Assembly (NCBI GenBank): GCA_041660005.1
Contig: JBAZXG010000003.1
Coordinates: 64,835-128,834 of the forward strand
Length of the DNA stretch: 64,000 bases
Direction: 5' to 3'
DNA from: Patescibacteria group bacterium
Lineage (GTDB): Bacteria > Patescibacteriota > Patescibacteriia > GWA2-46-9
Each line of letters starts with the position of its first letter. The first letter of the stretch is position 1. Positions 31,141 through 64,000 of the stretch are shown in pieces. The position numbers and the translations under genes were made by a program. Below the pieces are notes generated by a model that was not told the origin of the DNA, searched no databases, and worked only from the letters and a program-made list of their open reading frames with translations.

Positions 31141-31152
31141 TGTTTAAAGACA

Positions 31153-35494: not shown

Positions 35495-35501
35495 TAATCA
35501 T

Positions 35502-36206: not shown

Positions 36207-36309
36207 ACTTATATGCCAAATATAATCGCCGACAAAACCAAAAAACAGACTTACTATAAGTGCACTTCACTCACTATCCTCGGCAATAAGGTGATCACAG
36301 AATAGATTT

Positions 36310-36774: not shown

Positions 36775-36783
36775 TTTGGAATT

Positions 36784-37203: not shown

Positions 37204-37282
37204 ATGATTACTGGGTTATTAAACCTCTTTGATTTAGTACAATTTACAGGGTACACTCAGTTTCGATTGATAGGGTCAAAAT

Positions 37283-38742: not shown

Positions 38743-38751
38743 TGAATAATA

Positions 38752-39210: not shown

Positions 39211-39221
39211 TGTAATTATCA

Positions 39222-39509
39222 ATGATCTCCCTACTCAAAAAACCGAGTGCCTGGATTCCAATAGTTATTCCGCTACTCTTTTTTGCCTATATAGTTATTG
39301 CAATTTCTTTTTTTGAAATAGTGCGAGAGAAAGACGAAGGAGTTGGTGCGCACCTTTTTCAGTTGTGGCTCCTCATTGAACCGTTTATGGTTGGATATTT
39401 TGCTATTCGTTGGTTGCCGCGTGCACCGAAACAAGCAGTTACGATTCTAGTCATTCAGGTTCTCGCTGCACTTTTGCCTATATCAACAGTTTTCGCTTTT
39501 AAGCTATAA
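39222..39509 (+). CDS. Small membrane protein, hypothetical
   Basis: 95-aa ORF with three hydrophobic helices. Confidence 0.4.
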   Translation: MISLLKKPSAWIPIVIPLLFFAYIVIAISFFEIVREKDEGVGAHLFQLWLLIEPFMVGYFAIRWLPRAPKQAVTILVIQVLAALLPISTVFAFKL

Positions 39510-39520
39510 AGAACGAAACT

Positions 39521-40348
39521 ATGAAAGTTCTGTTACTCGGAGCAAATAGTTATGTCGGTTCACGAGTTTATTTAGAACTAAAAAAGGATCATGAAGTAGT
39601 TGGCACATTTCACAACAAAAAACTTTTTACGAATCTCGTCTTTCTTGATGTTACCGATAGGCAAGCGGTAATGGATCTTATTATTAAAGAAAAACCGAAC
39701 GTAATCGTTCACTGTGCAAATCAGGCGAGTAATAGGTGGTGCGAAGAACATTTAGAAGATGCCGTTAAGATTAATCGGGAGGCAACAAAATTTATTGTAG
39801 AGGGGGCGAATATTGTTGACTCAAAAGTAATTTATGTTTCTTCCTTCGCGGCGATTTCTCCGACTAACTTGTATGGAATAATGAAAGAGGAGTCAGAACG
39901 GATGATTAAAACGGTTCGTTCGGGTTACGCAATAATCCAGCCGGGGGTAATAGTTGGTATTAGTCCAAAGATAAAAAAGGAAGATGGATTTTTTAGTTCT
40001 CTTATGGAAAATTTAAATGACAATAAGCCGGCCGAGTATGACAATATCAAAAAGTATCAACCAACCTATTTGGGTCATATTTGCGAAGTAATCAAGTTGA
40101 TTTTAGAAAGAGGTCTTTGGAATAAAACATTTCCCGTAGCATCACTAGGCGTTAAAACAAAGTATGAATTAGCAAAAGACATCTTATCTCCTTTTGGAAT
40201 AACAGTAGAAGAAGTTGAAGGTAGTCACACGATTACTAAGAAAAAGACACAAGGCCTAAAGGAACTAAACGAATCGAGTCTGCCGGTCTACACATATATG
40301 CAGACCATTGAGAAGGTTGTCGAAGAAATTAAAGCCAGTAACTGTTGA
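39521..40348 (+). CDS. NAD-dependent epimerase/dehydratase (extended SDR, RmlD-like)
   Basis: N-terminal Rossmann MKVLLLGANSYVGSRVY and a YxxxK-type region (NLYGIMKEESE). Confidence 0.65.
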   Translation: MKVLLLGANSYVGSRVYLELKKDHEVVGTFHNKKLFTNLVFLDVTDRQAVMDLIIKEKPNVIVHCANQASNRWCEEHLEDAVKINREATKFIVEGANIVDSKVIYVSSFAAISPTNLYGIMKEESERMIKTVRSGYAIIQPGVIVGISPKIKKEDGFFSSLMENLNDNKPAEYDNIKKYQPTYLGHICEVIKLILERGLWNKTFPVASLGVKTKYELAKDILSPFGITVEEVEGSHTITKKKTQGLKELNESSLPVYTYMQTIEKVVEEIKASNC

Positions 40349-40351
40349 ACT

Positions 40352-40963
40352 ATGAAAATCTTCCTCGCCACAACCAACGGTGGGAAAATTGAGCGGCTTA
40401 CGAAACTACTAAAACAGATCAACGTAGACATTGAAGTTTATACTCCGGCAGATTTACACATAGAAATTCCCGAAATTGTGGAAACTGGAAAATCTTTACT
40501 CGAGAATGCAAAGACTAAGGCCCGCGCATATTTTGGCAAAGTTCAAATGCCTATTCTTGCAAACGACACAGGTTTTTATGTAGAGGGGGAGGGGTTCATT
40601 GATGCGCCTAAACGGGAAGCGCTTGGAGAGGCCAGCGAGGGTACGTTGTCCTTAGAAGAGATCTCTAAAAAAATGGCAGATTTTTGGAAAGGTATAGCCA
40701 TTAAACACGGCGGCAAAGTAGACGCGTCATGGATTGAATCTTTTGTGGTTCTCTACCAGGACGGCACAATGAAAGAAGCTGAGTCCCGTAGAGATGTTGT
40801 TTTGACGAACCAAGAGTTTGGTACACCGCACGTACAAATGCCGGTACGTGCCCTCTATTACTCAAAAGTCACTAATAAACCCGCCATTCAACATACTAAA
40901 GAAGAGGAGATTCAAGAGATGAAGCCGATCATAGATGCTTTAGTCAATGTGTTAGAATATTGA
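40352..40963 (+). CDS. Non-canonical purine NTP pyrophosphatase (Ham1/RdgB/ITPase family)
   Basis: MKIFLATTNGGKIERL...ETGKSLLENAKTKA...DTGFYV is a Ham1-like pattern. Confidence 0.65.
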   Translation: MKIFLATTNGGKIERLTKLLKQINVDIEVYTPADLHIEIPEIVETGKSLLENAKTKARAYFGKVQMPILANDTGFYVEGEGFIDAPKREALGEASEGTLSLEEISKKMADFWKGIAIKHGGKVDASWIESFVVLYQDGTMKEAESRRDVVLTNQEFGTPHVQMPVRALYYSKVTNKPAIQHTKEEEIQEMKPIIDALVNVLEY

Positions 40964-41029
40964 TTTTGGAAGCGTAGGGATGGTATTTGGCGCTTGACAG
41001 TAAATAACCGTTGTATATACTATAGATAT

Positions 41030-41305
41030 ATGAAAACTATTATCAACGTGAAAGCAGATAGGGACACAAAAATTAAAGCGCAACGTTTAGCAAAAGAGCT
41101 TGGATTACCTCTAAGCGTTGTTATTAACCAGTATTTAAAGGACTTTATACAGCAGGGTAAAATTACATTTTCGCAACCCTTGATGCCAAATACCAGAACT
41201 CGAAAGATGCTTGATCGGGTATTGGCTGACATCAAGAAAGGTAAGAATGTATCTCAGAGCTTTAACAATGCAAAGGATTTGATTGCTGACTTAAGAAAGA
41301 AGTAA
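41030..41305 (+). CDS. RelB/DinJ-family type II antitoxin
   Basis: ATG at 41030 in ORF 40994..41305. MKTIINVKADRDTKIKAQRLAKELGLPLSVVINQYLKDF is a ribbon-helix-helix DinJ pattern. The stop overlaps the toxin start. Confidence 0.75.
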   Translation: MKTIINVKADRDTKIKAQRLAKELGLPLSVVINQYLKDFIQQGKITFSQPLMPNTRTRKMLDRVLADIKKGKNVSQSFNNAKDLIADLRKK

Positions 41306-41565
41306 TGTTGGTGCGTTATCACCGAGACTTTAAGAAGCAGTTTCAGAAATTAACTTTAAAGCAACAAAGCCAGTTTGATGAAAGGTTGGCCATTTTTAGC
41401 AATGATCCTTTTGCGTCGCAGTTGAATAATCATTCATTGCGGGGTGTTTACCAGGGCTGTCGCAGTATAAATATTTCCGGTGATCTACGAGTGATCTATG
41501 TTGCTGACAATGAAGGCGTTGCGTTACTTATAGCCATTGGAACGCATAGCCAGCTTTATGGGTAG
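41305..41565 (+). CDS. RelE/YafQ-family type II toxin (mRNA interferase)
   Basis: 86 aa with FKKQFQKL...HSLRGVYQGCRSINISGDLRVIY...IGTHSQLY, the typical RelE/YafQ pattern. Confidence 0.8.
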   Translation: MLVRYHRDFKKQFQKLTLKQQSQFDERLAIFSNDPFASQLNNHSLRGVYQGCRSINISGDLRVIYVADNEGVALLIAIGTHSQLYG

Positions 41566-41567
41566 CT

Positions 41568-42113
41568 ATGATTAAAGTTGTAACTGTTCATGGCAGGTTC
41601 CAGCCGCCGCTACATAAGAATCACTGGAACTATATTAAAGCAGCTTTTGGCGTTGCAGAAAAAGTTATTATTCTTATCACTAACCCCAACCTGTCTGAAA
41701 AAGCTGTACCTGAAGCTGAACACAGAAATAAAGCTGATAATAATCCGTTGTCGTACGATGAGAGAGTAAAAATCTTTAAATCTTTTTTTGACAACATTGG
41801 CATCGCAAAAAATAGGTATGAATTCAAACCTTTTGATATTACCGACGAGAAGGAGTGGAGGAAGTTAGACAAGGGCACTCCAAATATGGTTAACGTGTAT
41901 AGTGACTGGAGTAATTCGAAGCTAGAAAAATTTAAAACACATGATCTTAAGGTTATTCGACTAGATCTTCAGCCGTTGGACGGTGTATCTGGAACACGTA
42001 TTCGTGAAATAATCTGGCGAAATATTGACGCATCTCAGATGCGAAATGAGTTGTTAAAAGCAGGGTATATGGAAGAAGCAATTCCAGGTCTTTTTGAAGT
42101 ATTGGGTTATTAG
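41568..42113 (+). CDS. Cytidylyltransferase-fold nucleotidyltransferase, NMN adenylyltransferase-like
   Basis: VHGRFQPPLHKNH (variant of GRFQP.H.GH) and a C-terminal SGTRIRE (ISSTxxR-like) motif. Confidence 0.55.
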   Translation: MIKVVTVHGRFQPPLHKNHWNYIKAAFGVAEKVIILITNPNLSEKAVPEAEHRNKADNNPLSYDERVKIFKSFFDNIGIAKNRYEFKPFDITDEKEWRKLDKGTPNMVNVYSDWSNSKLEKFKTHDLKVIRLDLQPLDGVSGTRIREIIWRNIDASQMRNELLKAGYMEEAIPGLFEVLGY

Positions 42114-50878: not shown

Positions 50879-51979
50879 ATGCTAAATATCGTTTCCCACT
50901 CGCGAAGCGTTCGACCATCGCTCTACTTTGCTGCCGCGGGTTTTTTTATCGCCGTGGGTATATTAGTCAATGTTAGTCCCTTACGTTTATTGCGGGCAAC
51001 TGACACGCCGTCTCCTGAAGAATCAGCAATTGTGAGTATCATTGCACATTCGTTACCGAGTGTCGTTAGTATAGTCGGCGTACAGGACCAAGGTCAGACG
51101 AGTAGTGTTGTTGGTCGCGGTTCAGGTTTTGTTGTCAGCAAAGATGGCTTAATTCTCACAAACAAGCATGTTGTTGAGCAGCCGAACCTGACGTACCGCA
51201 TTTTTTTTGATGACGGTCGGAAATTCACCGCAAAGGTTGTAGCACGCGACCCATTGAACGATATCGCCATCCTTAAAATTCCTGGCAACAACTTTACGTC
51301 ACTAGCGCTTGGTAACTCAGACAATGTGAAAATTGGTCAAACAACGATTGCTATCGGCAATTCACTGGGAGCATACGAGAATAGCGTGACGAAAGGGATT
51401 GTTAGCGGTCTTGGGCGGTTTATCAATGCAAGTAATGATCTCACCGGTAGTACCGAGACGATCGAAGACGCTATTCAGACTGACGCTGCTATTAATCAGG
51501 GGAACTCCGGTGGGCCGCTTCTTAATTCGCGCGGAGAAGTGATGGGCATTAACACTGCCATCGTTTTACAGGGTAGGGGAGTAGGATTTGCTATTCCCAT
51601 TAACCTTGCTAAAAACGCCATTAGTTCTTACCAAAAAAACGGAAGAATTGTTGAGCCATACCTTGGTGTTCGTTACGTATCCATTAATGCAGAATTTCAA
51701 GAGACCAACAAACTACGCTACGACTATGGCGCCATGGTGAGCTCTGGCACTGATGCACGCTCGCCATCAGTGATAGCTGGAAGCCCCGCCGCGATTGGTG
51801 GACTGCAAGACGGTGATATCATCCTCAGTGTGAACAACGTGTTAATCCGTGGAAAAAATACGCTGCGTGACATTATTACAACGCATAAACCTGGTGATAA
51901 GCTAACGCTCGTGGTAGCTCGGGCTGGCAGTGTTTTGAACATAGTGGTTACGCTTGTTGAAGTTCCTGCAGCGCAGTAA
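50879..51979 (+). CDS. HtrA/DegP-family serine protease with PDZ domain
   Basis: Catalytic triad context TNKHVV, NDIAILK, GNSGGPLL, and a C-terminal PDZ (GLQDGDIILSVNN). Confidence 0.9.
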   Translation: MLNIVSHSRSVRPSLYFAAAGFFIAVGILVNVSPLRLLRATDTPSPEESAIVSIIAHSLPSVVSIVGVQDQGQTSSVVGRGSGFVVSKDGLILTNKHVVEQPNLTYRIFFDDGRKFTAKVVARDPLNDIAILKIPGNNFTSLALGNSDNVKIGQTTIAIGNSLGAYENSVTKGIVSGLGRFINASNDLTGSTETIEDAIQTDAAINQGNSGGPLLNSRGEVMGINTAIVLQGRGVGFAIPINLAKNAISSYQKNGRIVEPYLGVRYVSINAEFQETNKLRYDYGAMVSSGTDARSPSVIAGSPAAIGGLQDGDIILSVNNVLIRGKNTLRDIITTHKPGDKLTLVVARAGSVLNIVVTLVEVPAAQ

Positions 51980-53199
51980 TGGCAAAAAAAGTTCTTATCT
52001 TAGGAAGCGGTTTCGGTGCGGTTTACACCTATCGCGCCTTGCGAAAAGCATTCCGTACCGACAAGGAAATTACCGTCACTATTCTTGCCAAAACGAACTA
52101 CTTTTTATTCAGTCCAATGCTGCATGAAGTAGCGACGGGCGGGTTAGACCAACGTGATATCGTACAATCGATACGAGGCATATTGAACTGCTGCCAGGAT
52201 GCCTTTATTGAATGTGAGGTTAGTGGTATTAATGCTGAAACAAAAAGAGTTAGCACCAACAGGGGCGAGTTTTCCTATGATTATCTGGTTGTTGCGGTTG
52301 GTGCAAACGCATCCTTTTTTAATGTCCTTGGCGCCGCAGAGTTTGCGCTGCCCTTGAAAACTCTGCACGATGCGCTAGCTATTCGTTCCAAAATTCTGTC
52401 ACTACTTGAGGAGTCACTTTCAACAAAAGACCAGGAAGAACGTCGACGACTTTTACGCTGGGTTGTTGTTGGCGCTGGTCCAACAGGGGTTGAGCTTGCC
52501 GCTGAAATGGTGGAATTAGCTGAATCGTTCGCTAAGACTGCTCCAATGGGTACTAAATTTGAAATCGATACACAATTACATCAGTCAAGTAATCAGATAC
52601 TAGCAACCTTTGACCCTAAAGTGCAAAAAGTGGCCGCATCGGTTCTGAGAAAAAAAGGTGTAATCATAAATTTAAATAGCAAAATTATCGAGGTAAAGAA
52701 GAATGGCGTGACACTAGCAAGTGGAGAGTTTTTACCTGCGGGTGTCGTCATCTGGACAGCTGGAGTAGCAGCCGTTCCGCTCATCTGTAATCCAACGACT
52801 ATCCTGAATGACCGTCAGTGTATAAAAATTACGCAGTATTTAAACACTATAGAGTACCCAGAAATTTTTGCGGTTGGCGACGTTGCCTATGTACCCGGTG
52901 TCCCGCAAACGGCGCAGGCCGCCGTAGCTGAGGCCATAGTAGCAGGTAAAAATATTTTGGCTATGGTCAAAGACAAACCGCTTATTCCTTTTCACTTTAA
53001 AGAAAAAGGTACCCTTGTTTCGTTGGGTCAATGGAGGGCCGCCGGTATGCTCTATGGGGTTAAGATTGAGGGCAGATTTGCCTGGTGGCTATGGAGAACG
53101 ATTTATCTTTTTAAACTGATTGGCGTACGGAACCGCATTCGTGTTGCTATAGACTGGACGCTGAACCTTTTTTTCTTGAGAGATATATCGCAGATCTAA
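51979..53199 (+). CDS. Type II NADH dehydrogenase (NDH-2)-like FAD-dependent oxidoreductase
   Basis: Two dinucleotide folds, VLILGSGFGAVY and VVVGAGPTGVELAAE, plus GDVA near the C-terminus. Confidence 0.8.
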   Translation: MAKKVLILGSGFGAVYTYRALRKAFRTDKEITVTILAKTNYFLFSPMLHEVATGGLDQRDIVQSIRGILNCCQDAFIECEVSGINAETKRVSTNRGEFSYDYLVVAVGANASFFNVLGAAEFALPLKTLHDALAIRSKILSLLEESLSTKDQEERRRLLRWVVVGAGPTGVELAAEMVELAESFAKTAPMGTKFEIDTQLHQSSNQILATFDPKVQKVAASVLRKKGVIINLNSKIIEVKKNGVTLASGEFLPAGVVIWTAGVAAVPLICNPTTILNDRQCIKITQYLNTIEYPEIFAVGDVAYVPGVPQTAQAAVAEAIVAGKNILAMVKDKPLIPFHFKEKGTLVSLGQWRAAGMLYGVKIEGRFAWWLWRTIYLFKLIGVRNRIRVAIDWTLNLFFLRDISQI

Positions 53200-53325
53200 T
53201 CCGAGCGAGATTCACTGTGTTATGGCGCGTCAATTTTATGAATTTTTTAAAGCAATTGAGTTGACGAAAATGCTAATTTGGGTTAAACCTATAGGGCATT
53301 TATTTACCCGAACAGTCATTTTGCA

Positions 53326-53805
53326 ATGAATAATTTGGGCTCACAAGCTGTTTTAACGGAGAAGGGAAGGAAAAAGGCAGAGGAGGAGCTGTCATTGCTT
53401 ATAAATAATAAACGACCCGAAGTTTCTGAAAAAATTCGCACCGCTAAAGAAATGGGCGATATTTCTGAAAATGCTGAATATGCCGCAGCGAAAGAAGAGC
53501 AGAGCTTCAACGAAGCGAGAATCCTAGAATTACAAAATTTACTTAAGACCGCCGAAATTGTTACAAACACTGGGAGCGGAAAAAACAGTACGGTTAGTGT
53601 AGGTGGTACGGTGGTCGTTCGCGACAACGGAGGCAAAGAGCGAAGATTTACAATCGTCGGAGTTAACGAAGCGAACCCCAAAGAGGGAAAAGTAACCAAT
53701 GAGTCCCCGGTCGGACAAGCGCTCATTGGTCAAAAAAAGGGCGATACCGTTCAGGTTGAAACACCAAACGGAATAAAATCACTAACAATTCTTGAGATTT
53801 TGTAG
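53326..53805 (+). CDS. greA: Transcription elongation factor GreA
   Basis: LTEKGRKKAEEEL...AKEMGDISENAEYAAAKEEQ...SPVGQALIGQKKGDTV is the canonical GreA pattern. Confidence 0.9.
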   Translation: MNNLGSQAVLTEKGRKKAEEELSLLINNKRPEVSEKIRTAKEMGDISENAEYAAAKEEQSFNEARILELQNLLKTAEIVTNTGSGKNSTVSVGGTVVVRDNGGKERRFTIVGVNEANPKEGKVTNESPVGQALIGQKKGDTVQVETPNGIKSLTILEIL

Positions 53806-53811
53806 GTTACT

Positions 53812-55299
53812 ATGGCTGAACCACACGACGAGCTTACCGTAAGGCGAGAACGCTTGGAACATATTATTGCTAGTGGACTTGATCCTTATCCAAGTACCAG
53901 TAGCAGAACCCATGCTATTGACGCAGTTAAACAGGACTTCGATGCACTTCTAGCTGGAAAAGAAGTCGTTACTATAGCGGGTCGTGTTTTAGCCATACGT
54001 GAACATGGTGGCTCTACTTTTCTTTCCCTTAACGACGGGACGGGAGACTTGCAGGGCTACATGAAGCAGGATGTGGTTGGCGACACTAGTTATTTATTGC
54101 TTCAAGATTTAGACGTCGGCGATTTCATTGAAATAACGGGCACACTATTTATAACGAAGCGAGGCGAGAAATCAATTTTGGCCTCTGTTGGGCATCGTAT
54201 GCTCGCAAAATCCTTGCGACCGCTCCCAGAAAAGTGGCACGGGTTAGCGGATACTGAATTGAGACTCCGAAAGCGGTATCTTGACCTCATTGTGAACGAA
54301 GAGATGCGGGACCGCATGTATAAGCGCTCAGCAGTAATTTTGGCAATGCGAAATTTTATGAACAGTAACGGCTTTCTTGAAGTCGAGACGCCAACACTGC
54401 AGCCCATTTATGGCGGCGGTCTCGCTCGTCCATTTAAAACCTACCACAATACACTTAAAAGAGAGTTCTATTTGAGAATATCTGATGAGATGTACTTGAA
54501 ACGGCTCTTGGTTGGCGGCGTAGAAAAAGTCTATGAAATTACAAAAGTTTTCCGCAACGAAGGCATCGACAGAGATCACAACCCTGAGTTCACTATGTTT
54601 GAGTCGCAAACAGCATACAAAAATTACGAATGGGGGATGGACTTTTTCGAAGCTATATTCGAGCATGTGGCAACGTCCGTTTTTGGAAAAACAATAATTG
54701 AATACCAAGGAGTAGAGTTAAACTATAAGCGGCCATGGAAACGGGTGCGCTTTATTGATGCTGTTCAAGAAGTTACCGGCCTCGATGTTTCTAAATGCAG
54801 CACCCCAAAAATCGCTAAAGATGAAGTGAAGAAATTGTTACCAAAAGAACTGGCGGAAAAGCTTACGCCGCTCGAAACGGTGGGTGAAATACTGGCTTTA
54901 GCTTTTGAGGAATTAGTTGAATCCACTTTCATACAACCCACAATAGTTTATGACTACCCGGTTGAGGTTTCGCCACTGGCAAAGAAAACACCGGATAAAA
55001 AATTTGTAGAAAGGTTTGAAGCGTTCATTATGGGTAGTGAAGTAGGTAATAACTATTCTGAGCTCAATGACCCAGTGGACCTGGAAAAACGCTTTATTGA
55101 CGAGAAAAGGAAAGAAAAAGCTGGATTTACAGAAGCACACCAAACCGACTACGAATACCTGGAAACAATTCAGCATGGTATGCCGCCCGCTTGTGGTTTA
55201 GGAATTGGAGTGGATCGCATGATTATGTTCATGACGAACGCAAAGAACATTAAGGAGGTTATTCTTTTCCCAACGCTACGCCCTAAGGAAGACGAATAG
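53812..55299 (+). CDS. lysS: Lysine--tRNA ligase (class II)
   Basis: OB-fold N-terminus, RKRYLDLI, FLEVETPTLQ, FRNEG, GLGIGVDRMIM. Confidence 0.92.
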   Translation: MAEPHDELTVRRERLEHIIASGLDPYPSTSSRTHAIDAVKQDFDALLAGKEVVTIAGRVLAIREHGGSTFLSLNDGTGDLQGYMKQDVVGDTSYLLLQDLDVGDFIEITGTLFITKRGEKSILASVGHRMLAKSLRPLPEKWHGLADTELRLRKRYLDLIVNEEMRDRMYKRSAVILAMRNFMNSNGFLEVETPTLQPIYGGGLARPFKTYHNTLKREFYLRISDEMYLKRLLVGGVEKVYEITKVFRNEGIDRDHNPEFTMFESQTAYKNYEWGMDFFEAIFEHVATSVFGKTIIEYQGVELNYKRPWKRVRFIDAVQEVTGLDVSKCSTPKIAKDEVKKLLPKELAEKLTPLETVGEILALAFEELVESTFIQPTIVYDYPVEVSPLAKKTPDKKFVERFEAFIMGSEVGNNYSELNDPVDLEKRFIDEKRKEKAGFTEAHQTDYEYLETIQHGMPPACGLGIGVDRMIMFMTNAKNIKEVILFPTLRPKEDE

Positions 55300-55300
55300 T

Positions 55301-55732
55301 ATGGAAAAGAAAGTTCTGATTTTCGGGACCTTTGATCTATTGCATCCTGGACACCTTAGTTTTTTAAAAGAGGCAGGCGACATCGGTTCGGTTGTCGTTG
55401 CGCTGACGCCTGACGCATTGTTGGTTACCTACAAAGGAAGGCCTGCAGTTAACCCGTATGCCGTAAGAAAAAGACGCCTTGAACGGCTTACCTGGGTGCA
55501 GGAAGTAGTCAGCGCAGATGCAATCCCAAATACGTATAGTATTTTGATGCGGGTTAAGCCCGAAGTCATTTTGCTCGGTTACGACCAAGGACACCTAGCA
55601 AAGCAGCTCACTACCCGCATTCGTGAGTACCATCTGAAGATTGACATTGTTATCGCGCGTCCTTATAGAGCTTCTATTTACCGTTCGTCGCTTTTTCGTG
55701 TACCAATGATAAAGGTTAAAGCTGCTGTCTAG
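55301..55732 (+). CDS. Cytidylyltransferase-like nucleotidyltransferase
   Basis: VLIFGTFDLLHPGHLSFL contains the (T/H)xGH motif; 143 aa. Confidence 0.65.
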   Translation: MEKKVLIFGTFDLLHPGHLSFLKEAGDIGSVVVALTPDALLVTYKGRPAVNPYAVRKRRLERLTWVQEVVSADAIPNTYSILMRVKPEVILLGYDQGHLAKQLTTRIREYHLKIDIVIARPYRASIYRSSLFRVPMIKVKAAV

Positions 55733-55779
55733 TTGCGCTGATAGCAACACACGCTATACTTAAAACATGCTTGATAAGT

Positions 55780-57063
55780 ATGCTTGATATTGAGATTCTT
55801 CGTAAACAACCACAGATAGTCATCGCCTCACTGAAAAAAAGGGGAGGGGATGTGGTAAGGGTTGATGAACTGATTAAATTGGATAATGCTTGGCGTTCAA
55901 AAACTGAAGAAGTTGAAGCACTGCGTTCAAAGCAAAAAACTTTATCAAATGAGCGTCGCATTGATGAGGCAAAGATCAATAAAGAGGCTATTAAGCAGGC
56001 CGAGAGCGAACTTTTAGAACTTCAGAGTATGCGTGATGCCGCTTGGATCGCTATTCCAAACATCTTGCATGAGGATGTACCCGAAGGAAAAGATGATTCA
56101 GAGAACAAGGTTATAAAGACGTGGGGTGTGCAACCGGCATTTACCTTCCCGCCGAAAGATCATATGGCGCTCGGTGAGTCACTGGATATTATTGACATGG
56201 AGCGCGCGGCTGAGGTTACGGGTGCTCGGTTCTACTACCTTAAGGGAGATGGGGCGCTGCTGGAGTTTGCATTACTCCACTATGCTATGTCGCGCTTAAC
56301 TGACGAAGCATGGATAGCTAAAGTTGCAGCTGCTGCGGGTGACGGTGTCAGCACGAAAACTTTTATACCGGTTATTCCTCCGGTGATGGTACGTCCGGAT
56401 GTTTTCGTTAAAATGGCGCGCCTACAACCCGGCGTCGACGAAGATGAGCGTTATTATATCCCGTCTGATGACCAGTACCTCATTGGCAGCGCGGAACATA
56501 CACTGGGTCCGCTCCACATGAACTCAACACTGAACGAAGATGACTTGCCCATACGGTATGTCGGTTTTTCTACCTGTTTCAGGCGCGAAGCCGGCTCTTA
56601 CGGAAAAGACACCAAAGGTATGATTCGCGTGCATCAGTTTGACAAGGTAGAAATGGAGACTTTCGCTACTGCGGATATGGCCACGCAGGAGCAAAACTTT
56701 TTAGTCACTGTTCAAGAAACGTTACTACAAGAACTTGGCTTGCCGTATCAAGTCGTGGCAGTGTGCGGCGGTGATATTGGTAGCCCTGATGCTCGACAAA
56801 TTGATTTGGAGTGTTGGATGCCCGGACAGCAGAAATATCGAGAAACAAATTCGGCTGATTTGGTCAGCGACTACCAAGCAAGACGCTTAAATACAAAAGT
56901 TCGTCGTAAAGAAGGCGTTGAATTCGTGCATATGAACGACGCAACAGCTATAGCCATGAGTCGCATCATTGTCGCTCTTTTAGAAAACTACCAGCAAGAG
57001 GATGGCACCATTGCCGTTCCGCAGGTTCTTCGTCCATTTATTGGCAAAGATAGGATCAGCTAA
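55780..57063 (+). CDS. serS: Serine--tRNA ligase
   Basis: N-terminal coiled-coil arm and class II motifs (FRREAGS, RVHQFDKVE, NDATAIAMSR). ATG at 55780, or TTG at 55771. Confidence 0.92.
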   Translation: MLDIEILRKQPQIVIASLKKRGGDVVRVDELIKLDNAWRSKTEEVEALRSKQKTLSNERRIDEAKINKEAIKQAESELLELQSMRDAAWIAIPNILHEDVPEGKDDSENKVIKTWGVQPAFTFPPKDHMALGESLDIIDMERAAEVTGARFYYLKGDGALLEFALLHYAMSRLTDEAWIAKVAAAAGDGVSTKTFIPVIPPVMVRPDVFVKMARLQPGVDEDERYYIPSDDQYLIGSAEHTLGPLHMNSTLNEDDLPIRYVGFSTCFRREAGSYGKDTKGMIRVHQFDKVEMETFATADMATQEQNFLVTVQETLLQELGLPYQVVAVCGGDIGSPDARQIDLECWMPGQQKYRETNSADLVSDYQARRLNTKVRRKEGVEFVHMNDATAIAMSRIIVALLENYQQEDGTIAVPQVLRPFIGKDRIS

Positions 57064-57081
57064 ATTGCTGCAATTCTTGTT

Positions 57082-58251
57082 ATGCAGCTTGATCCGAAGA
57101 CCGTTGAACTATCAAAAATTAAACAGATAGAACTGCTAGCGTCGGCGAGGCCCGATACTGTCTCCTTGGCTCAAGGAATACCATCATTTGACACGCCAGA
57201 CGAAGTCAAGCGTTTTGCTATTCGTGCCATCGAAGACGGTCGCGTTGCTAAATATTCGCTCGCCCCTGGTCTCATTGAACTACGTGAAGCCATTGAAGAA
57301 TCGCTGATTAAAGACAGTATGCACTACGACTCCGAAGAAGAAATAATTGTAACCGCAGGTTCAATCGAGGCAATAAGTGCGACCATGCTGGCGTTGTTAC
57401 AATCCGGCGATGAGGTCATTCTGTTTTCACCCAGTTATGTTTCTTACCGTCAGTCAATTTTATTGGCAAAGGCCAAACCGGTTTATGTACCTCTCGACGA
57501 AGAGCATGAGTGGAGCATCAATTTTGAAGCGCTTCTTGCGGCACTTACTTCGAATACGCGAGTCATTCTGATTTGTAATCCTAATAACCCAACCGGCAGC
57601 ATTTTTAAAAAAGACGATCTTCTTAAAATCGCGCAAATCGCTGAGAGCCGTAATCTTTTCGTTGTACTCGATGAGGTGTATAAAGATTTTATATACGATA
57701 ATCGTACGTTTTACTCACTAGCTACCGAAAGCAAATACCGTGACCGCGTCATTCGCGTCTATAGTTTTTCAAAAGCGTATGCAATGACCGGCTGGCGTAT
57801 TGGTTATTTACATACAAGTAAGGAGCTAGCGAGAAGAATTTTGGCCGTTCATGACGGTTTGGTAACATGCGCTCCGGTTGTGTCGCAGTACGCCGCACTT
57901 GGCGCGCTGACTCTTCCCGCAGCATCTTGGCAGGTTTATCTTGGCGAGTATAAAGCCCGTCGGGACCTCCTTGCGTCTTACCTTGATAAAATTGTAGGGT
58001 TAACCTACACCATGCCAACTGCCTCGTACTTTTTCTTCCCAAAAATTAATCGAAACGTGGTTAACAATTATGCTGATTCCGAAACTTTTGCCCTGCAAAT
58101 GCTCAGTATCGCAGGCGTTGCAACTGTCCCGGGTTCTGCATTCGGCCCAAGTGGAGAAGATCATCTTCGCCTATCTTTTGGCAGGGATCGGGAAACAATA
58201 AGTAAAGGCATGGAAAGAATGATGACATTTTTTAAATCACATGCCGACTAG
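57082..58251 (+). CDS. Class I/II pyridoxal-phosphate-dependent aminotransferase
   Basis: NPNNPTG, DEVY and SFSKAYAMTGWRIGY (PLP lysine). Confidence 0.85.
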   Translation: MQLDPKTVELSKIKQIELLASARPDTVSLAQGIPSFDTPDEVKRFAIRAIEDGRVAKYSLAPGLIELREAIEESLIKDSMHYDSEEEIIVTAGSIEAISATMLALLQSGDEVILFSPSYVSYRQSILLAKAKPVYVPLDEEHEWSINFEALLAALTSNTRVILICNPNNPTGSIFKKDDLLKIAQIAESRNLFVVLDEVYKDFIYDNRTFYSLATESKYRDRVIRVYSFSKAYAMTGWRIGYLHTSKELARRILAVHDGLVTCAPVVSQYAALGALTLPAASWQVYLGEYKARRDLLASYLDKIVGLTYTMPTASYFFFPKINRNVVNNYADSETFALQMLSIAGVATVPGSAFGPSGEDHLRLSFGRDRETISKGMERMMTFFKSHAD

Positions 58252-58987
58252 CTTAGTTAAAAATATTGTTCGAGTTTATCTTGGTGTTCTCGCACGCACG
58301 CGGGTTTTACGCAGTCAGTCTTACGTTGTTGTCGTGTCGGGTATTAACGGCAAGACAACCACAAAACGAGCAATTTACGACGCACTTAAGGATAGGAACT
58401 GCAATGTCTTCATGTCGGAAATGAATTACAATACGGATATTGGTTTACCCTTAACGATTCTTGGCTTAACCCCTCCACCAAGAAAGGCAGGGGAGTGGGC
58501 TATTGCCCTCTGCAAGGCCGCGATGAGTTCTCTGTTTGGAAAGAAACTTCCAGAATTCTTAGTTGTGGAATTTGGTATTGCAGACAAGGGTGACATGAAT
58601 AAACTTCTCACTGTAGTGAAGCCAAACATTACTGTTGTTACGAATACTCATTATTCGGACTTTAACCCCAATACAACACTTGATGAACTGGCGCACGAAC
58701 TGTCAGTGCTTGCAGCCGCAACTTCTACCAGGGGTCTTGTGGTTCTCGGGGGCGATAATGCTTACGTTGATGCATTGCGCTCTGCTACCAAAGCAAGAAC
58801 GGTAACGTTCGGTTTTGAAAAAAATAACGACATTGTTATTTCAAAAACAGACGAGACGGTGGATGGTACAACCATTTTAATCAACAATAAAGAGTACACT
58901 GTTGCATCATCGGGGAATAATCATTTTTATGCTTTTACTGCTGCTCAGCTCGTCAGCGACTTCATTTTCAAAAAAATAAAAGAATAA
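58241..58987 (+). CDS. Short Mur-ligase-family protein (central ATPase domain only)
   Basis: P-loop SGINGKTTTK, VVEFGIADKGDM, VVTNTHYSDF. At only 248 aa it has no C-terminal Mur ligase domain. Confidence 0.55.
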   Translation: MPTSLVKNIVRVYLGVLARTRVLRSQSYVVVVSGINGKTTTKRAIYDALKDRNCNVFMSEMNYNTDIGLPLTILGLTPPPRKAGEWAIALCKAAMSSLFGKKLPEFLVVEFGIADKGDMNKLLTVVKPNITVVTNTHYSDFNPNTTLDELAHELSVLAAATSTRGLVVLGGDNAYVDALRSATKARTVTFGFEKNNDIVISKTDETVDGTTILINNKEYTVASSGNNHFYAFTAAQLVSDFIFKKIKE

Positions 58988-58992
58988 CGTGT

Positions 58993-59817
58993 ATGTTCGA
59001 TAAGCTACACTGGCGCTACCAACCAAAGAGAGTTTCGCCCTATAGAGACAATACTAAACAGGTGATAAAAAAGGGGTTGCGACCTTTCTGGATAGTTGTT
59101 TTTATTATTATCGCAGGTATTGTCTACCTACTCTTCGGCACTCGTTTTTTTTATATTAATAAGATCAATGTCCAGGGGACTCGCTATCTTGAAAAGCAAC
59201 AAATTGTCGACAAAGTTAACGCGCTATTACAGCATCGTCGTTGGTTCATTATCCCTGAGTCAAATATCTTCTTTACGCCAGTGGCGCAGATCCAGAGCGA
59301 CTTAACGGATATACGTTTAGAACGTATCAGCGTAACTCGCTCATTTCCAAGTACGTTGAATATTCAAATTACCGAGAAGCAGGCCAGTGCCTTCTGGAGC
59401 TCTGGTAACCGATGGTATGAGCTCGATAAAAACGGATTTATCATGAGCGAGGTGGTCAAACCCAGCGATAATAGTGTCAAAATTACCTTTGCGAACTCCT
59501 TAGAGCCGGCAGAAATTGGTAAGCAGGTAATAGACCCGAAACTTCTTGAGGAGGCGCTAGCTATTAAAGCGAACTTGCCAGACCTGCCAGTAACCGCGCT
59601 TGATGTATTTGTGATTGATCCTGCGAACCCATACACGATCAGTTTCAGAAACAAACAAGGTGCACTCATTTATTTTACGACCGAACTTTCGCTACAAACG
59701 CAACTTCAGAAACTGACAATTTTTAACAATGACAAAAATAGAACGGAAGCCGGTTGGCAGGATAAAATTCATTACATTGACTTAAGATACGGCACAACAA
59801 AAGTCTATTATCAATAA
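58993..59817 (+). CDS. ftsQ: FtsQ-type cell division protein (POTRA domain)
   Basis: N-terminal TM helix, then POTRA-like INKINVQGTRYLEKQQIVDKV and an FtsQ-like beta domain. Confidence 0.65.
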   Translation: MFDKLHWRYQPKRVSPYRDNTKQVIKKGLRPFWIVVFIIIAGIVYLLFGTRFFYINKINVQGTRYLEKQQIVDKVNALLQHRRWFIIPESNIFFTPVAQIQSDLTDIRLERISVTRSFPSTLNIQITEKQASAFWSSGNRWYELDKNGFIMSEVVKPSDNSVKITFANSLEPAEIGKQVIDPKLLEEALAIKANLPDLPVTALDVFVIDPANPYTISFRNKQGALIYFTTELSLQTQLQKLTIFNNDKNRTEAGWQDKIHYIDLRYGTTKVYYQ

Positions 59818-60393
59818 ATTATTGTGCGACACATAGATATTCTGCAGACGATCGAGAGGGCACAGAGTAGTTCGAATAGTCGAGTCTATATAAATGATGA
59901 TAGAAAGGACCCTGTCCTATGGACAAAAATCTTCAACGCAAGGCTTGCGTTAGTCATATTAAGTCCCGATGGACTATCTGGTTAATAACTTAAATTTAGA
60001 CTCAATTCAAGGCTTTTAAATGCCCTGGGCTGCGTTCAATCTGAACCAGCTAAGTGTTTATACCTTTGACACGTTCTTGTTGGACTTCGGTAATTATAAT
60101 CGTTGCTGATAATCAGACATGGAGAATTTCTACCTAGGCACACTCTCTATAAGAAAGAAGACACTAAACTAGAAATGTAGGGTCAGAAGAAAATGGGCGG
60201 TAACGACTTACTTATGGATAACCATTACTTTAGTGTCGTATAAGATATATTGTGCGACTCATACATAATATAACTTATGAAGTTAAAACTACTCCCCTAT
60301 AGTATTTACACCCGCGGAGATTGTCTGAATCTCGCGCGGGTGTAATCGTATCGCCTCCTTCTTGTAACTAATTATTGTCTGGTTGCGTGGCGG

Positions 60394-61485
60394 CTATCTT
60401 GTGGTGTGTAACTCGCCGGCGAATGTTCCCCGGAATTCGACTTGCGGCTCGTCTCCGCGGCGGTTCACCACTTGGCCTATCTGGATGGCAGACTCCCCGA
60501 CCGGTCGCAGGCGCGGTGAACAACGCAGCTCGCCGTTTTCGACCACGCTAACCATCTGGATACCTTGATTGAAGACGTGATCCATTTCATCAGGATCGAT
60601 CTGGCCGACGAATTGAGCCATCCGCAGTATCGGCGGCCGATCCCAGGCATCGCGATTCAGTACGACCTTGAGCGTCGACGGGAGAATGCGCGGGATGTTC
60701 TCGACGAGACCGCCGCCCGTGATGTGAGCATGAGCCGCAAAAACGGTACCCAGCTTACGCTCAGCCTCGCAGGCGTCGATGTACATCTGCGTCGGTACCA
60801 TCAGCGCGTCAGCGAGAGTGTCGTCGAGATCTGACCAGTACTTTGCAAGTCGGCGCAGAACAGTTCTCGGACCGGCATTCAGCCCGAAGACTCGCCGCAG
60901 TAGCGAATAGCCATTCGCTCCCGGTCCCTTCGAGGGCCAACCGTAGACACATTGTCCAGCTTTGACCGCTCCGGTAATCGTTCCGGCAGAAAAGCCGATG
61001 CCGAAAGCAGCGATGTCGAAACCGTTTGCTCTCCGGAACATTCCCGGATGCTCAGCTGTTTCTCCACCGATCAGTCTGCACCCGGCAGCCTTGCAGGCAG
61101 CGATGACGCCGTCGATCACCTCGATGTGGTCTTCTGGCACGAGCTTCGCGACCGCCAGATAGTCGAGGGCAAAGGCGGGTTGGTGGCCCGCGCAGTACAG
61201 GTCGACCAGAGCCATGGCGCCAGCATCGCTCCCGACCCCCTTGTAGTAGCCGCGACCAAGCACTGCAGCGATGTCCGGCTTTGTGCCCGCGCCATCGGTT
61301 GATGCCGCTAAGCGCGCTACCCGCCGACGAGCGCTCCGAGGAATCAATCCCCCGCCAGCAAACCCGCCGATTTCATCCCCTCCGCCTGGCCAGGCCTTCT
61401 CTATTCGTGCTTTCACGAGATCCTCGAAGACACCTGCCGCAGAAAGGCTGACTCCGGCTTGTTCGTACAGTCTTGCAGTTGTCAA
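60394..61485 (-). CDS. purM: Phosphoribosylformylglycinamidine cyclo-ligase (AIR synthase, PurM), compositionally foreign
   Basis: STDGAGTK, GGETAEHPGMF and HITGGGLVENIPRILP match PurM motifs. TTG start with an AAGGAG Shine-Dalgarno 9 nt upstream. A spot count gives 39/60 GC at 60661-60720. Confidence 0.85.
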   Translation of the reverse strand: MTTARLYEQAGVSLSAAGVFEDLVKARIEKAWPGGGDEIGGFAGGGLIPRSARRRVARLAASTDGAGTKPDIAAVLGRGYYKGVGSDAGAMALVDLYCAGHQPAFALDYLAVAKLVPEDHIEVIDGVIAACKAAGCRLIGGETAEHPGMFRRANGFDIAAFGIGFSAGTITGAVKAGQCVYGWPSKGPGANGYSLLRRVFGLNAGPRTVLRRLAKYWSDLDDTLADALMVPTQMYIDACEAERKLGTVFAAHAHITGGGLVENIPRILPSTLKVVLNRDAWDRPPILRMAQFVGQIDPDEMDHVFNQGIQMVSVVENGELRCSPRLRPVGESAIQIGQVVNRRGDEPQVEFRGTFAGELHTTR

Positions 61486-61677
61486 TGTCGTTCACTCCTT
61501 ATAGAAACGTCTCACGGTTGATCCGTGGCGGAAACATCTTATCACTTAACTCAAATTTTGCAATTGATTTTTTAATAACTACTGTACTCGTTGCGCCGCG
61601 TAGCTTTTGTTTCCCTTACTTTAATGCTTTAAAGTATTGATGTATTTCGAAAGACAATCAAGACTTAGCTTATTAAG

Positions 61678-62430
61678 CTACTCCTTGATCGACGCACTAA
61701 AACTTTCACCTCGAACGTAAAGATAGTCGCTGCTCGTCTCACGCTGATGACGGATAGACAAGTACACCATCAAAAAAGCGGCGCAGTACAGTATTCTAAA
61801 AACGACGAGTTGCCAGTCAGAAACAACCTTTGCGAGGTCAATAGCTCCTAAGAAAATATACAGAAGAATGGCACTGTTATACAGCAATTCATAACCCGAA
61901 GCCCTGCTTTTTTTCATTTTCCATTCACGGTATTTTGTTACTGAGTCATAGAGAAGTAAAAGCGCCAGCACCGCTATTGAAACGCGAAACAGTATGGCTG
62001 AAACCGGGTTAGCTACCGCTTCTGTTGTAAAAAAAGTTATGGGTTCAAAAATTACGCCGTTGGGTTGCGCCAAAAACCAACTCCCTATAACAGAAACAAT
62101 AAATGAAAGGAACGCTAAAATACGTGCAATGCGAACGTTTTTAAAAACTTTCAATCCTACGTAATAGTAGAGTGGTATACCGCTCAAAAAAACAGTCGCC
62201 TGACTGAAAACCGCTGAGGTAAAGCGTGGAAAATCCTCAACTCCAACTCCTAATAGAGTATTTCGGTACGCGTTCTGAGCCCATAGGAGGCCCGTAGCGA
62301 GCCAGAACAGCCCATAAGCACTCATAATATGGCTAAGATGCTTAGAAAAGAGCTCATAAACTAATATAAATGCAACCACTGATACGACAGCGGTTACAAA
62401 TGCATGGAAAATGAGCCCAATGCTTACCAT
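61678..62430 (-). CDS. Hypothetical polytopic membrane protein
   Basis: 250-aa ORF with about 7 hydrophobic helices. No family recognised. Confidence 0.45.
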   Translation of the reverse strand: MVSIGLIFHAFVTAVVSVVAFILVYELFSKHLSHIMSAYGLFWLATGLLWAQNAYRNTLLGVGVEDFPRFTSAVFSQATVFLSGIPLYYYVGLKVFKNVRIARILAFLSFIVSVIGSWFLAQPNGVIFEPITFFTTEAVANPVSAILFRVSIAVLALLLLYDSVTKYREWKMKKSRASGYELLYNSAILLYIFLGAIDLAKVVSDWQLVVFRILYCAAFLMVYLSIRHQRETSSDYLYVRGESFSASIKE

Positions 62431-62439
62431 GGTGAAATT

Positions 62440-63660
62440 TTACGGAAGGTAACGCACAGGGTCAACCGAAACGCCGTTTTCATGAACCTCGAAGTGAAGG
62501 TGCGGCCCAGAGCTGTACGGTCCGGTACCTGGTGCGCCAGGAGTAGCGCCAGAAAGTGCAATAACCTGACCCTGAGTTACAAAAGTATCTTGGGCAACAA
62601 GCGCGCTCGATATGTGGCCGTACACGGTCGTCAATCCACCGTCGTGAATCAAGGCAATATACCAATAATTTCGAGGGTTACCTGTTTTAATTTTTGCGAC
62701 ATAACCGGATGCCGCAGCCCGAATTGGTGTCCCCTGCGCAGCTCTAATATCGATTGCATTGTGCTCAAAAAGGTAACGAAGCGGATAGTCGGGGTCTCGG
62801 AAATTGGTTGTAACTTTGTTCTTGGGAACTGGCCAAATAAGTCTTGGTGCGGGACCGTTGGTTTGCACGCCTTCCGCCTTCAACTTATCACGGACAGTCT
62901 GTTCTAAAGCGGCAACTTCTCTATTGGCTTGCTCTTGCTGATCTTTAACTTGTTGCAATAGCGCTGAGAATCGTTGTTCGGAGGACTTTGTTTGATCCAA
63001 AACATATCTCTTCAAAGACTGCCGATCCTCTAAGTCTAGAGACTGCTGACGTAGATCATCTGTCGCTGAAATAAGCTCCCCGCGCTTATTTTCAATTTGC
63101 TTTTTTTCGTCAGCCAACGCTTGCCGTGTTGCGTCTACTTCAACAATGACATTGTCGAGCTTATTTTGAAGCGTTTGTAGGTTTTGCAGATGACTGTAAA
63201 AAGTAGAAAAATTTTGCGTCGTAAAAAGTGCTTGCAGTGGCGAACGGCTTCTCTCACGAACCAAATAACGAAGTAGCGAACCAAGATCTGCTCGAAGTGA
63301 AGTCAGTTTATCTTGCTTGTCGTTAATTTCAGTTTCCAGGTTGCTTATTTCTAAATTCACTTTTTCAATATTTAACTGACCAGTCTCAATGTTAATTTGG
63401 GTTTTAGAAATTTGGTCACTGAGTATGCCTAACTGGTTTGCCAAGGTACGTTTTTCACTTTGCTTTTGCTTCAAACTTTTTTGGTACTCTGCTGCTTGCT
63501 CCTGCAGCTTTTTCATTTCTTCTTGCTTGGCGTTTATCTGCTGCTGCAGTGCGGTTATTTCATTACTGTCTGCGGCAAATACGTTGAAGCTGTACATCGG
63601 CAACAGTGAAAAGATTACAGCCACAAAAATTGTTAGTATGCCGTGCTTAATCATTTGCAT
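62440..63660 (-). CDS. M23-family metallopeptidase with N-terminal coiled coil (EnvC/PcsB-like)
   Basis: Signal anchor, about 230 aa of Q/E/L-rich coiled coil, and a C-terminal M23 domain with HNAIDI and GPHLHFEV. Confidence 0.85.
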   Translation of the reverse strand: MQMIKHGILTIFVAVIFSLLPMYSFNVFAADSNEITALQQQINAKQEEMKKLQEQAAEYQKSLKQKQSEKRTLANQLGILSDQISKTQINIETGQLNIEKVNLEISNLETEINDKQDKLTSLRADLGSLLRYLVRERSRSPLQALFTTQNFSTFYSHLQNLQTLQNKLDNVIVEVDATRQALADEKKQIENKRGELISATDDLRQQSLDLEDRQSLKRYVLDQTKSSEQRFSALLQQVKDQQEQANREVAALEQTVRDKLKAEGVQTNGPAPRLIWPVPKNKVTTNFRDPDYPLRYLFEHNAIDIRAAQGTPIRAAASGYVAKIKTGNPRNYWYIALIHDGGLTTVYGHISSALVAQDTFVTQGQVIALSGATPGAPGTGPYSSGPHLHFEVHENGVSVDPVRYLP

Positions 63661-64000
63661 TGGTTAATTTTACGAGCGCACTGTCAATACGCTCCAGGAC
63701 AGACGCCTTTCCTATTACGCACGCAATGGTAAATGGACTTGGGCTAACCGCTTCGCCAGAAAGCGCAGTCCTGAGTGGCCACAGGGTCTCCCCTACTCCC
63801 AAATTGTCTTTGGTTATTGTAGCCCGTAATTCGCTCTCGAATTTTTGCTCCTCAAAAAAGTTATCACCTAAATTAGTTACCCACGCACGAATAGCACGTA
63901 ATCGTTCAATGGTTGTATCTTTATTTGATTTTTTGGGTACGAGGAGTGCTGGGTCGTAGTCAAAATTTGGATCAAGATAAACCTTCAGTGCGTCTGGTAG
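63647..64000 (-). CDS. gltX: Glutamate--tRNA ligase, C-terminal part; 5' end outside window
   Basis: The minus-strand frame is open from 64000 to a TAA at 63647-63649. Its translation ...ETLWPLRTALSGEAVSPSPFTIACVIGKASVLERIDSAL resembles the GltX anticodon-binding C-terminus. Confidence 0.6.
   Translation of the reverse strand, partial: LPDALKVYLDPNFDYDPALLVPKKSNKDTTIERLRAIRAWVTNLGDNFFEEQKFESELRATITKDNLGVGETLWPLRTALSGEAVSPSPFTIACVIGKASVLERIDSALVKLTNAND

Follow-up and report, generated by a model that had tools for sequence, protein, structure and literature searches.

We analysed a stretch of 64,000 nucleotides (nt) from a Patescibacteria group bacterium (GenBank assembly GCA_041660005.1, contig JBAZXG010000003.1, positions 64,835 to 128,834), hereafter the window, and describe in it an intact gene for PurM, the aminoimidazole ribonucleotide (AIR) synthetase of purine biosynthesis. 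The gene differs sharply in composition from the chromosome around it, is absent from the two syntenic relatives that we located, and lies at the predicted replication terminus next to a site that resembles dif, the chromosome dimer resolution site of bacteria. We think that this purM was probably acquired horizontally, as a single gene of a Patescibacteria-type clade inserted at the terminus, from a genome richer in guanine and cytosine (GC) that most likely belonged to another Patescibacterium. An earlier note on this DNA, made from the sequence alone, had proposed the recent transfer of an orphan purM from a high-GC donor, and acquisition from a GC-richer genome agrees with both the outlying composition of the gene and its absence, without remnant, from the relatives.

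Composition, neighbourhood and identity of the purM gene

The purM open reading frame (ORF) has a GC content of 60.3%, compared to 44.2% for the whole window, and is the GC maximum among all windows of 1092 nt (standard deviation, sd, 4.1 points), the runner-up reaching 51%. The compositional boundary is sharp at either end of the ORF, where the flanks drop to 39.6% (576 nt) and 35.9% (192 nt). GC at third codon positions (GC3) is 0.637 in purM, 3.5 sd above the mean of 0.412 (sd 0.064) for the 60 other long ORFs. The gene is an outlier from the window both in tetranucleotide distance (z = 5.6) and in Karlin codon bias (z = 2.6), the latter being exceeded only by a probably spurious ORF that overlaps tRNA-Gln. 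Its codon choice departs accordingly from that of the window, with fractions of 0.48 vs 0.11 for CTG, 0.82 vs 0.34 for AAG and 0.67 vs 0.30 for CCG, and the region holds long ORFs in antisense and alternate frames, which reach 116 amino acids (aa). A foreign origin of purM, in a genome richer in GC than this chromosome, is thus well supported. The earlier note had already picked out the gene as the most GC-rich in the window, and its coordinates, strand, frame, TTG start, AAGGAG ribosome-binding site, PurM motifs and long antisense ORFs all proved correct; its two spot counts, 39/60 and 22/60, were reproduced exactly. Its picture of AT-rich, ORF-free flanks holds for their composition, whereas the 576-nt flank turned out to carry the dif-like site, a half-site copy and a strong hairpin. 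The tRNA-overlapping ORF (122 aa, 29308-29676, minus strand, 56.6% GC), whose codon bias is the strongest in the window and for which Pfam gave no match, is probably not a gene.

The genes on both sides of purM belong to a conserved neighbourhood. The closest relative of the adjacent FtsQ protein, and the only close one, is 51% identical and comes from Candidatus Uhrbacteria bacterium CG10_big_fil_rev... (locus L085); at this locus and at a second one from a more distant relative (L173), the seryl-tRNA synthetase (SerRS) is 69% and 63% identical to that of the window, respectively. All three share the order NDH2-GreA-AspRS-CTP transferase-SerRS-...-FtsQ, followed by membrane protein-M23-GltX-WecG/NUDIX; in L085 an aminotransferase and a Mur ligase stand between SerRS and FtsQ, LigT follows WecG/NUDIX, and the membrane-protein side is on the opposite strand. 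The gap between the FtsQ and membrane-protein genes measures 374 nt in L085 and 771 nt in L173. Neither contains purM, and tblastn detected no purM remnant in either locus. The intergenic DNA of the three aligns from the ftsQ stop codon to position 60267 and no further, which places the inserted block within 60268-61677; its GC-rich core, 60306-61500 (59.4% GC, approximately 1.2 kb), comprises the ORF and a hairpin on its 3' side. The annotation of the nearest syntenic relative as Uhrbacteria also speaks against the Saccharibacteria-type organism that the earlier note had considered. A metagenome scan with the FtsQ protein gave no match. The AspRS gene is split into ORFs of 352 and 99 aa in the NCBI Uhrbacteria assembly (L085 4973-6380) and intact, with 491 aa, in the ENA assembly of the same organism (L086 4905-6380), so that the split is probably a sequencing or assembly frameshift. 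The features of the region around purM are:

58993-59817, plus strand: gene for an FtsQ-type POTRA protein, with which the left replichore ends; it is the conserved neighbour on the left of the purM position
59805-59832, plus strand: degenerate dif half-site (centre and right arm, 14/17), overlapping the ftsQ stop codon and conserved in both syntenic relatives
60233-60260, plus strand: dif-like site GTGTCGTATAA-GATATA-TTGTGCGACTC of 11-6-11 architecture, ancestral, outside the insert and the only copy in the window
60268-61677, no strand: maximal inserted block of at most 1.41 kb, from the end of alignable sequence on the left to the stop codon of the membrane-protein gene on the right
60306-60345, strand unassigned: GC-rich hairpin found as an inverted repeat (stem of 11+6 bp, loop of 5 nt) that follows the purM stop codon at a distance of 49 nt
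60394-61485, minus strand: purM-type coding sequence of 363 aa with a TTG start, recognised from the ORF, the Pfam AIRS and AIRS_C domains and clade membership
61495-61500, minus strand: Shine-Dalgarno sequence AAGGAG, read directly from the sequence, with a 9-nt spacer to the TTG start
61536-61563, minus strand: putative weak promoter TTGCAA-16 nt-(TGa)TAAGAT, 8/12 plus an extended -10 TG
61678-62430, minus strand: gene for a 250-aa membrane protein, the conserved right neighbour, upstream of purM on the same strand (68% identical to L085, 55% to L173)

A misassembly at purM is unlikely. In an independent assembly, that of Logan for run SRR18595301, a 17.5-kb contig matches positions 51543-64000 with 2 mismatches in 12,458 nt (99.98% identity), spans both junctions and reaches 5.1 kb past the end of the window.

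The predicted product has the two-domain architecture and the ATP and substrate motifs of known AIR synthetases (EC 6.3.3.1; structures 1CLI, 2Z01 and 2BTU). Pfam assigns it PF00586 (AIRS, 60.5 bits) and PF02769 (AIRS_C, 70.5 bits), both exceeding their gathering cutoffs; solved PurM structures align with it over the full length (E = 1.8e-52 to 5.8e-47, the best being 2z01 over residues 4-342), and the motifs DG.GTK, GGETAE.PG, AHITGGG and SNG.SL are intact. We searched 5.8 billion proteins for homologues and found approximately 70 at 42-52% identity to the query, with the closest relatives overall at 52-54%, whereas canonical PurMs in the same search share only 36-40%. All seven named relatives in this group are Patescibacteria (Buchananbacteria, Kerfeldbacteria, Andersenbacteria, Moranbacteria and "Patescibacteria group"), in whose metagenome-assembled genomes (MAGs) the proteins are annotated as PurM or as 'AIR synthase-related protein'. 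A neighbour-joining tree of 135 sequences (332 columns, 200 bootstraps), with PurMs of an Actinomycetota MAG, Planktophila, Bacillota, Chloroflexota, Planctomycetota and Proteobacteria as outgroup, separates 69 Patescibacteria-type sequences, the query included, from 66 canonical PurMs with 100% bootstrap support. Three signatures mark the clade, and the query carries all of them: HAHITGGG (65/69 in the clade, 0/66 outside), AWP (66/69 and 4/66) and a C-terminal EPQV (57/69 and 6/66), the last embedded in G-D/N-EPQV-x-F. At 89 columns that are at least 90% conserved in the clade the query keeps 85 residues and departs at 4, where the median member departs at 3, and the protein gives no indication of decay. 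A pattern-based scan of genome contigs with the clade alignment relied on patterns common to all PurMs; among the matches listed it returned only canonical PurMs at 33-42% identity, in no Patescibacteria context, and these served as outgroup. The query is at most 54% identical to any other Patescibacteria-type PurM and has the most GC-biased amino-acid composition of them, with the highest fraction of Gly, Ala, Arg and Pro (0.386) and the lowest of Phe, Tyr, Met, Ile, Asn and Lys (0.190) among 70 clade members, which points to a long residence in a GC-rich genome.

Several observations weigh against an acquisition of this kind. The product scores 220 bits with TIGR00878, the purM equivalog model, and does not reach its cutoff of 236.35; we regard this as a trait of the clade, because the ten members tested score 198-240 bits and eight of them (198-235), including members adjoining purD and purL, also stay below the cutoff. 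The query forms a deep, lone branch within the clade, the bootstrap value for its position is 0.54, and with the nearest sampled relative at 52-54% identity the donor could lie outside Patescibacteria. Presence and absence in two relatives cannot tell one gain from two losses, and we read the change as a gain because the composition of purM is foreign. The GenBank and Logan assemblies may share the same reads. At the block itself we found no integrase, transposase, tRNA or convincing flanking repeat, the nearest tRNA being 31 kb off, and around purM no second dif-like site, the best match of 15-17/28 being background. Finally, the 64-kb window yielded no further pur gene, either with Pfam on all ORFs of at least 120 aa or by tblastn with PurD, PurF, PurL, PurN and PurQ taken from PurM-clade loci, or in the 5 kb beyond it, which leaves a lone PurM without an obvious substrate. 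The label "orphan" given by the earlier note therefore stands for these 69 kb, the span over which it was shown.

Predicted function and other pur genes

As a predicted enzyme of the Patescibacteria-type clade, this PurM would convert formylglycinamidine ribonucleotide (FGAM) and ATP to AIR, ADP and Pi. We consider the clade to consist of genuine AIR synthetases because its members adjoin purD, purF, purN, purL and purQ elsewhere: purM has purD adjacent and purF nearby at L082, purN at L167, and belongs to a purD-purM-x-purL-purQ cluster at L169. Unlike the purM genes of these three loci, that of the window is solitary. The same holds for three of the nine other contexts (L083, L084 and L168), in which a clade purM without compositional anomaly stands alone within 10 kb on either side, which would fit a dispersal of the pur genes. 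According to one survey, the de novo purine pathway is complete in 32% of 399 MAGs of the Candidate Phyla Radiation (CPR; PMC11608272). Together with the clade members found in pur clusters, this makes the view of the earlier note, that CPR bacteria generally lack purine synthesis, too broad. We lean slightly towards the rest of the purine pathway being present elsewhere in the genome.

We commit to the gene being an intact predicted AIR synthetase that would be expressed either from its weak extended -10 promoter or by read-through from the upstream operon, in both cases with the strong AAGGAG ribosome-binding site. The promoter-like site scores under the threshold of our promoter scan. Downstream of the gene, the minus strand of 60280-60400 folds with z = -4.4, and none of 200 shuffled sequences folds as well; the hairpin at 60306-60345 lacks a U-tract and may serve as a terminator or stabiliser. 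Rfam returned no riboswitch or other non-coding RNA in either purM flank, at the gathering threshold for the whole window and at E <= 1 for 59700-61800.

GC-rich pur genes of the Patescibacteria type recur in lower-GC Patescibacteria genomes, in three of ten contexts with this window counted, a sample that is small and non-random. On a 922-kb Patescibacteria contig (L169, 8366-15900), the purD-purM-x-purL-purQ cluster has 54-55% GC and a GC3 of 0.56-0.63 between flanking genes of 36-42% GC. In a Buchananbacteria genome (L172, GCA_013359225.1, 10001-11092), a solitary purM of 56% GC stands in a context of 43% GC, and the 21-kb locus holds no remnants of other pur genes. These two islands, in related genomes of the Buchananbacteria type, have flanking genes in common, a CCA-adding enzyme on one side and DHH and ValRS genes on the other, with proteins that are 64-69% identical. 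Their PurMs are only 52% identical and belong to different subclades, and we found no dif-like site near either island. This pattern points to repeated exchange of pur genes within the phylum. Remnants of purD, purL, purQ, purF or purN were not detected by tblastn in the window, in L001 or in the flanks of L172.

The solitary position of the gene also admits the reading that purM is a dead end, intact but without pathway partners, and thus either non-functional cargo that has not yet decayed or a protein with a non-canonical role. The lack of any other pur gene in 69 kb fits this reading, as does the incomplete pathway of most CPR MAGs, given that 32% are complete (PMC11608272), and the Buchananbacteria locus offers a second GC-rich purM that is solitary in the same way. 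Set against this are the intact reading frame with 85 of 89 highly conserved residues, the strong ribosome-binding site, and the solitary clade purMs of normal composition in three of nine other contexts. We regard a dead end as possible, if on the unlikely side.

The dif-like site and the slot beside it

A 20-nt direct repeat in the left flank of purM led us to a 24-nt palindromic block, GTCGYATAAGATATATTGTGCGAC, that is invariant in the window, L085 and L173. An exact search of JGI metagenome contigs with this core returned 116 stretches with 104 distinct, unrelated flanks, and among the 80 loci listed no contig occurs twice. A position weight matrix of 101 distinct sequences gives the 28-bp motif GYGTCGYATAA-GATATA-TTGTGCGACRC. 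The corresponding 28-mer in the window is GYGTCGYATAAGATATATTGTGCGACRC; the copies in the relatives lie at 11107-11134 (L085) and approximately 12645-12672 (L173), and the metagenome loci are L175-L290. A dif site is defined as 28 bp in which a 6-bp centre separates two 11-bp arms of imperfect symmetry (PMC5357621). The window site conforms to this and to E. coli dif (GGTGCGCATAATGTATATTATGTTAAAT; Kono et al. 2011, PMC3025954) in length, in its 11-6-11 imperfect palindrome and in its AT-rich centre, and is identical to the E. coli sequence at 16/28 positions. It differs from E. coli dif in that the arms are nearly symmetric (GYGTCGYATAA, and GYGTCGCACAA on the other strand) and the sequence is specific to these Patescibacteria.

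The position of the motif is likewise that of bacterial dif, once per contig and at the point where GC skew switches and genes converge. Taking the motif as the reference for orientation, 92% of 66 loci show positive GC skew in the left flank and 80% of 71 show negative skew in the right flank; of the bases in long ORFs, 91% on the left side belong to the plus strand and 88% on the right side to the minus strand. Within the window itself the skew is positive in all 4-kb bins as far as 60 kb and negative thereafter, and the genes change strand at that point. We therefore interpret 60233-60260 as a predicted chromosome dimer resolution site at the replication terminus, on the strength of its 11-6-11 architecture and of the convergence of GC skew and gene orientation. 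The 24-nt palindrome had also been considered as an RNA hairpin, with which the Y position is compatible through G-U pairing, and as an NrdR-box-like operator; both ideas were dropped, as some 100 loci show skew and gene orientation converging on the palindrome, which favours dif. We found no description of the 28-bp motif, or of dif in Patescibacteria, in the literature that we searched, and identified no xer gene within the window.

Two further observations concern the surroundings of the motif. In 536 kb around 104 dif loci (L175-L290), 172 occurrences of the heptamer AGGGGAG point toward dif and 6 point away, a polarity noted for the related words GAGGGGA, TAGGGGA and GGGGAGA as well; an example in the window is 60289-60302 (minus strand). 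Polar sequences that orient FtsK are known in E. coli, and AGGGGAG is a candidate for such a sequence. Composition alone predicts that 74% of words of this type point toward dif, and gene co-orientation partly confounds the bias. Moreover, GC-rich segments of 300-450 nt occur 50-100 nt to the right of dif at four loci, with 53-62% GC in genomes of 34-45% GC (in motif orientation, L247 approximately 4730-5100, L238 1960-2320, L239 400-700 and L253 3010-3410). They contain only implausible ORFs and match no Rfam family; small cargo, or a structured RNA not yet recognised, may account for them.

The distance from dif rightward to the purM stop codon is 133 nt. The gene runs in the direction of the right replichore, as does the operon upstream of it, WecG/NUDIX-GltX-M23-membrane protein. 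FtsQ stands to the left of dif in 21 of the 54 longer dif loci and M23 to its right in 19, and in 10 of the latter FtsQ is present on the other side as well. In these 19 loci the slot that separates M23 from dif ranges from 96 nt to 4 kb and contains 0-4 unrelated ORFs. Cell-division genes thus frame the terminus, with a variable slot on its right side, and because this slot varies in size and content purM occupies a naturally variable position. The transferred block would have landed in this slot, between dif and the M23-peptidase operon.

To the left of dif, the degenerate half-site lies 290-430 nt away in the window and in L085 (10836-10849), and in L173 a DR1-like copy that matches more loosely stands approximately 340 nt left of dif (approximately 12296-12318). 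In some genomes dif itself follows ftsQ by 1-22 nt. An older Xer-type insertion, common to the three relatives, may thus lie between the half-site and dif, or the half-site may be an accessory binding site. We also considered the direct repeat AA(A/G)CTACTCC (60286 and 61675) as a target duplication of the purM insertion and rejected it, since the match is 9/10 with many equal matches in the 2.1 kb and the left copy has a counterpart in L085 and L173.

This location raises the question of how the gene entered. Integrative mobile elements exploiting Xer recombination (IMEXs), such as CTXphi, VGJphi, TLCphi and the gonococcal genetic island, and the pdif/dif modules of Acinetobacter resemble the present case in that purM sits beside a chromosomal dif, brings no recombinase of its own and shares its intergenic region with a degenerate dif half-site. 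They differ from it in that a pair of dif-like sites brackets their cargo (PMC5357621, PMC12907356, PMC11705084). We do not class purM as an IMEX because this bracketing pair is missing and adjacency alone is insufficient.

Xer-linked capture, in which the host Xer recombinase integrated the block at or next to dif as in an IMEX or an Acinetobacter-type module, is a hypothesis about mechanism that is compatible with horizontal acquisition from another Patescibacterium. The 133 nt between purM and the only dif-like site of the window favour it, as do the varying slot of the 19 loci, the half-site with its likeness to an older Xer scar, and the lack of an own integrase, which is usual for IMEXs (PMC5357621). 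Yet purM has no second dif-like site beside it, the segment enclosed by the half-site and dif is 400 nt of non-coding DNA and not the gene, the pur islands of L169 and L172 have no dif-like site nearby, and no other locus among the 54 dif loci analysed has purM. Terminus regions, moreover, tolerate insertions generally. On balance, capture by Xer appears quite unlikely. In a broader scheme, pur genes of the Patescibacteria-specific type would pass horizontally from one Patescibacterium to another in GC-rich cassettes, which could account for the patchy occurrence of de novo purine synthesis in these episymbionts, with the present copy captured, possibly by Xer, beside a phylum-wide and previously undescribed dif; taken as a whole this scheme seems doubtful to us.

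Origin of the gene and significance

Horizontal transfer would have brought purM, as a single-gene block of at most 1.41 kb, into an Uhrbacteria-like chromosome. In its foreign GC3, codon usage and oligonucleotide signature, its absence from syntenic relatives and its terminus location, the block resembles the horizontally acquired islets of the Lawrence-Ochman type. It is unlike typical islets in consisting of one gene in 1.2-1.4 kb, with no mobility gene, tRNA target or direct repeats above chance. The donor would be a more GC-rich genome with a Patescibacteria-type purM, probably an unsampled Patescibacterium of higher GC content; that its lineage is unsampled follows from the deep, lone branch of the query and its best identity of 52-54%. 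Uhrbacteria bins at NCBI have names carrying 52, 53 and 58, numbers that we take to be GC percentages by naming convention.

An alternative without transfer holds that purM is ancestral, was lost separately in both relatives, and is GC-rich by nature. Clade purMs do exceed the GC content of their own contigs, by 3.7 to 6.9 points in seven other contexts. In the window, however, the excess is 15.6 points, GC3 is 3.5 sd above that of the window genes, the choice of CTG, AAG and CCG is foreign, and the relatives retain no remnant, all of which makes an ancestral purM very improbable in comparison with a gain.

The sources that the earlier note had named are not supported either. An actinobacterial host, as suggested by the earlier note, or another high-GC donor outside CPR would be compatible with the 60% GC of the gene and with the query being the deepest lone branch of its clade. 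The phylogeny nevertheless groups the gene with Patescibacteria PurMs, at 100% bootstrap against all 66 canonical PurMs, an outcome that the earlier note itself had listed as contradicting its proposal; the query has three motifs nearly exclusive to that clade, and it is only 34% identical to the PurM of an Actinomycetota MAG (L029) and 35% to that of Planktophila (L070). Such a donor thus has a negligible likelihood in our view. The same is true of phage carriage, the second source that the earlier note had named, whether as an auxiliary gene or as a prophage remnant: purM does occur in cyanophages and other phages, and 198 GenBank phage records match the query, but the best identity is approximately 38% for these and 39% for IMG/VR among the matches listed, all these homologues belong to the canonical type, the insert comprises one gene only, and the neighbours (FtsQ, Mur ligase, membrane protein, M23 and GltX) include no phage gene. 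An assembly chimera or contaminating fragment, to which the sharp compositional boundaries at both ORF ends and the MAG source might lend weight, is equally remote, given that the Logan assembly has an identical structure and that two precise misjoins within one intergenic region of a single syntenic neighbourhood would be needed.

The elements at this locus are of known kinds, namely a PurM, a horizontally acquired islet and a dif site. What goes beyond routine annotation is the apparently Patescibacteria-specific PurM clade, as defined from its sequences, the recurrence of GC-rich pur islands, and the terminus context with a phylum-wide 28-bp dif-like motif. The dependence of Patescibacteria on their hosts for nucleotides is a central question, and the locus offers a clean, polarised gain of a purine gene whose donor pool would be the Patescibacteria themselves and not the host. 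Together with the pur cluster of L169 and the solitary purM of L172, this signature suggests that biosynthetic capacity has been traded horizontally and not only lost. The dif-like motif and the polar AGGGGAG words mark the terminus in fragmentary MAGs and could be used for assembly checks and for searches for terminus cargo.

The window contains one more region of deviating composition. A low-GC island at 29790-42100 (plus strand) has 30-40% GC, compared to 44-48%, and starts just after tRNA-Gln (29297-29370). It encodes T5orf172/MUG113, a DpnI-like nuclease, Schlafen AlbA_2 and an AbiEii toxin, and then a series of nucleotide-handling enzymes (PNPOx, His_Phos_1, NUDIX, RmlD-like and Ham1). 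This looks like a defence or accessory island and would be a second horizontally acquired region in the window.

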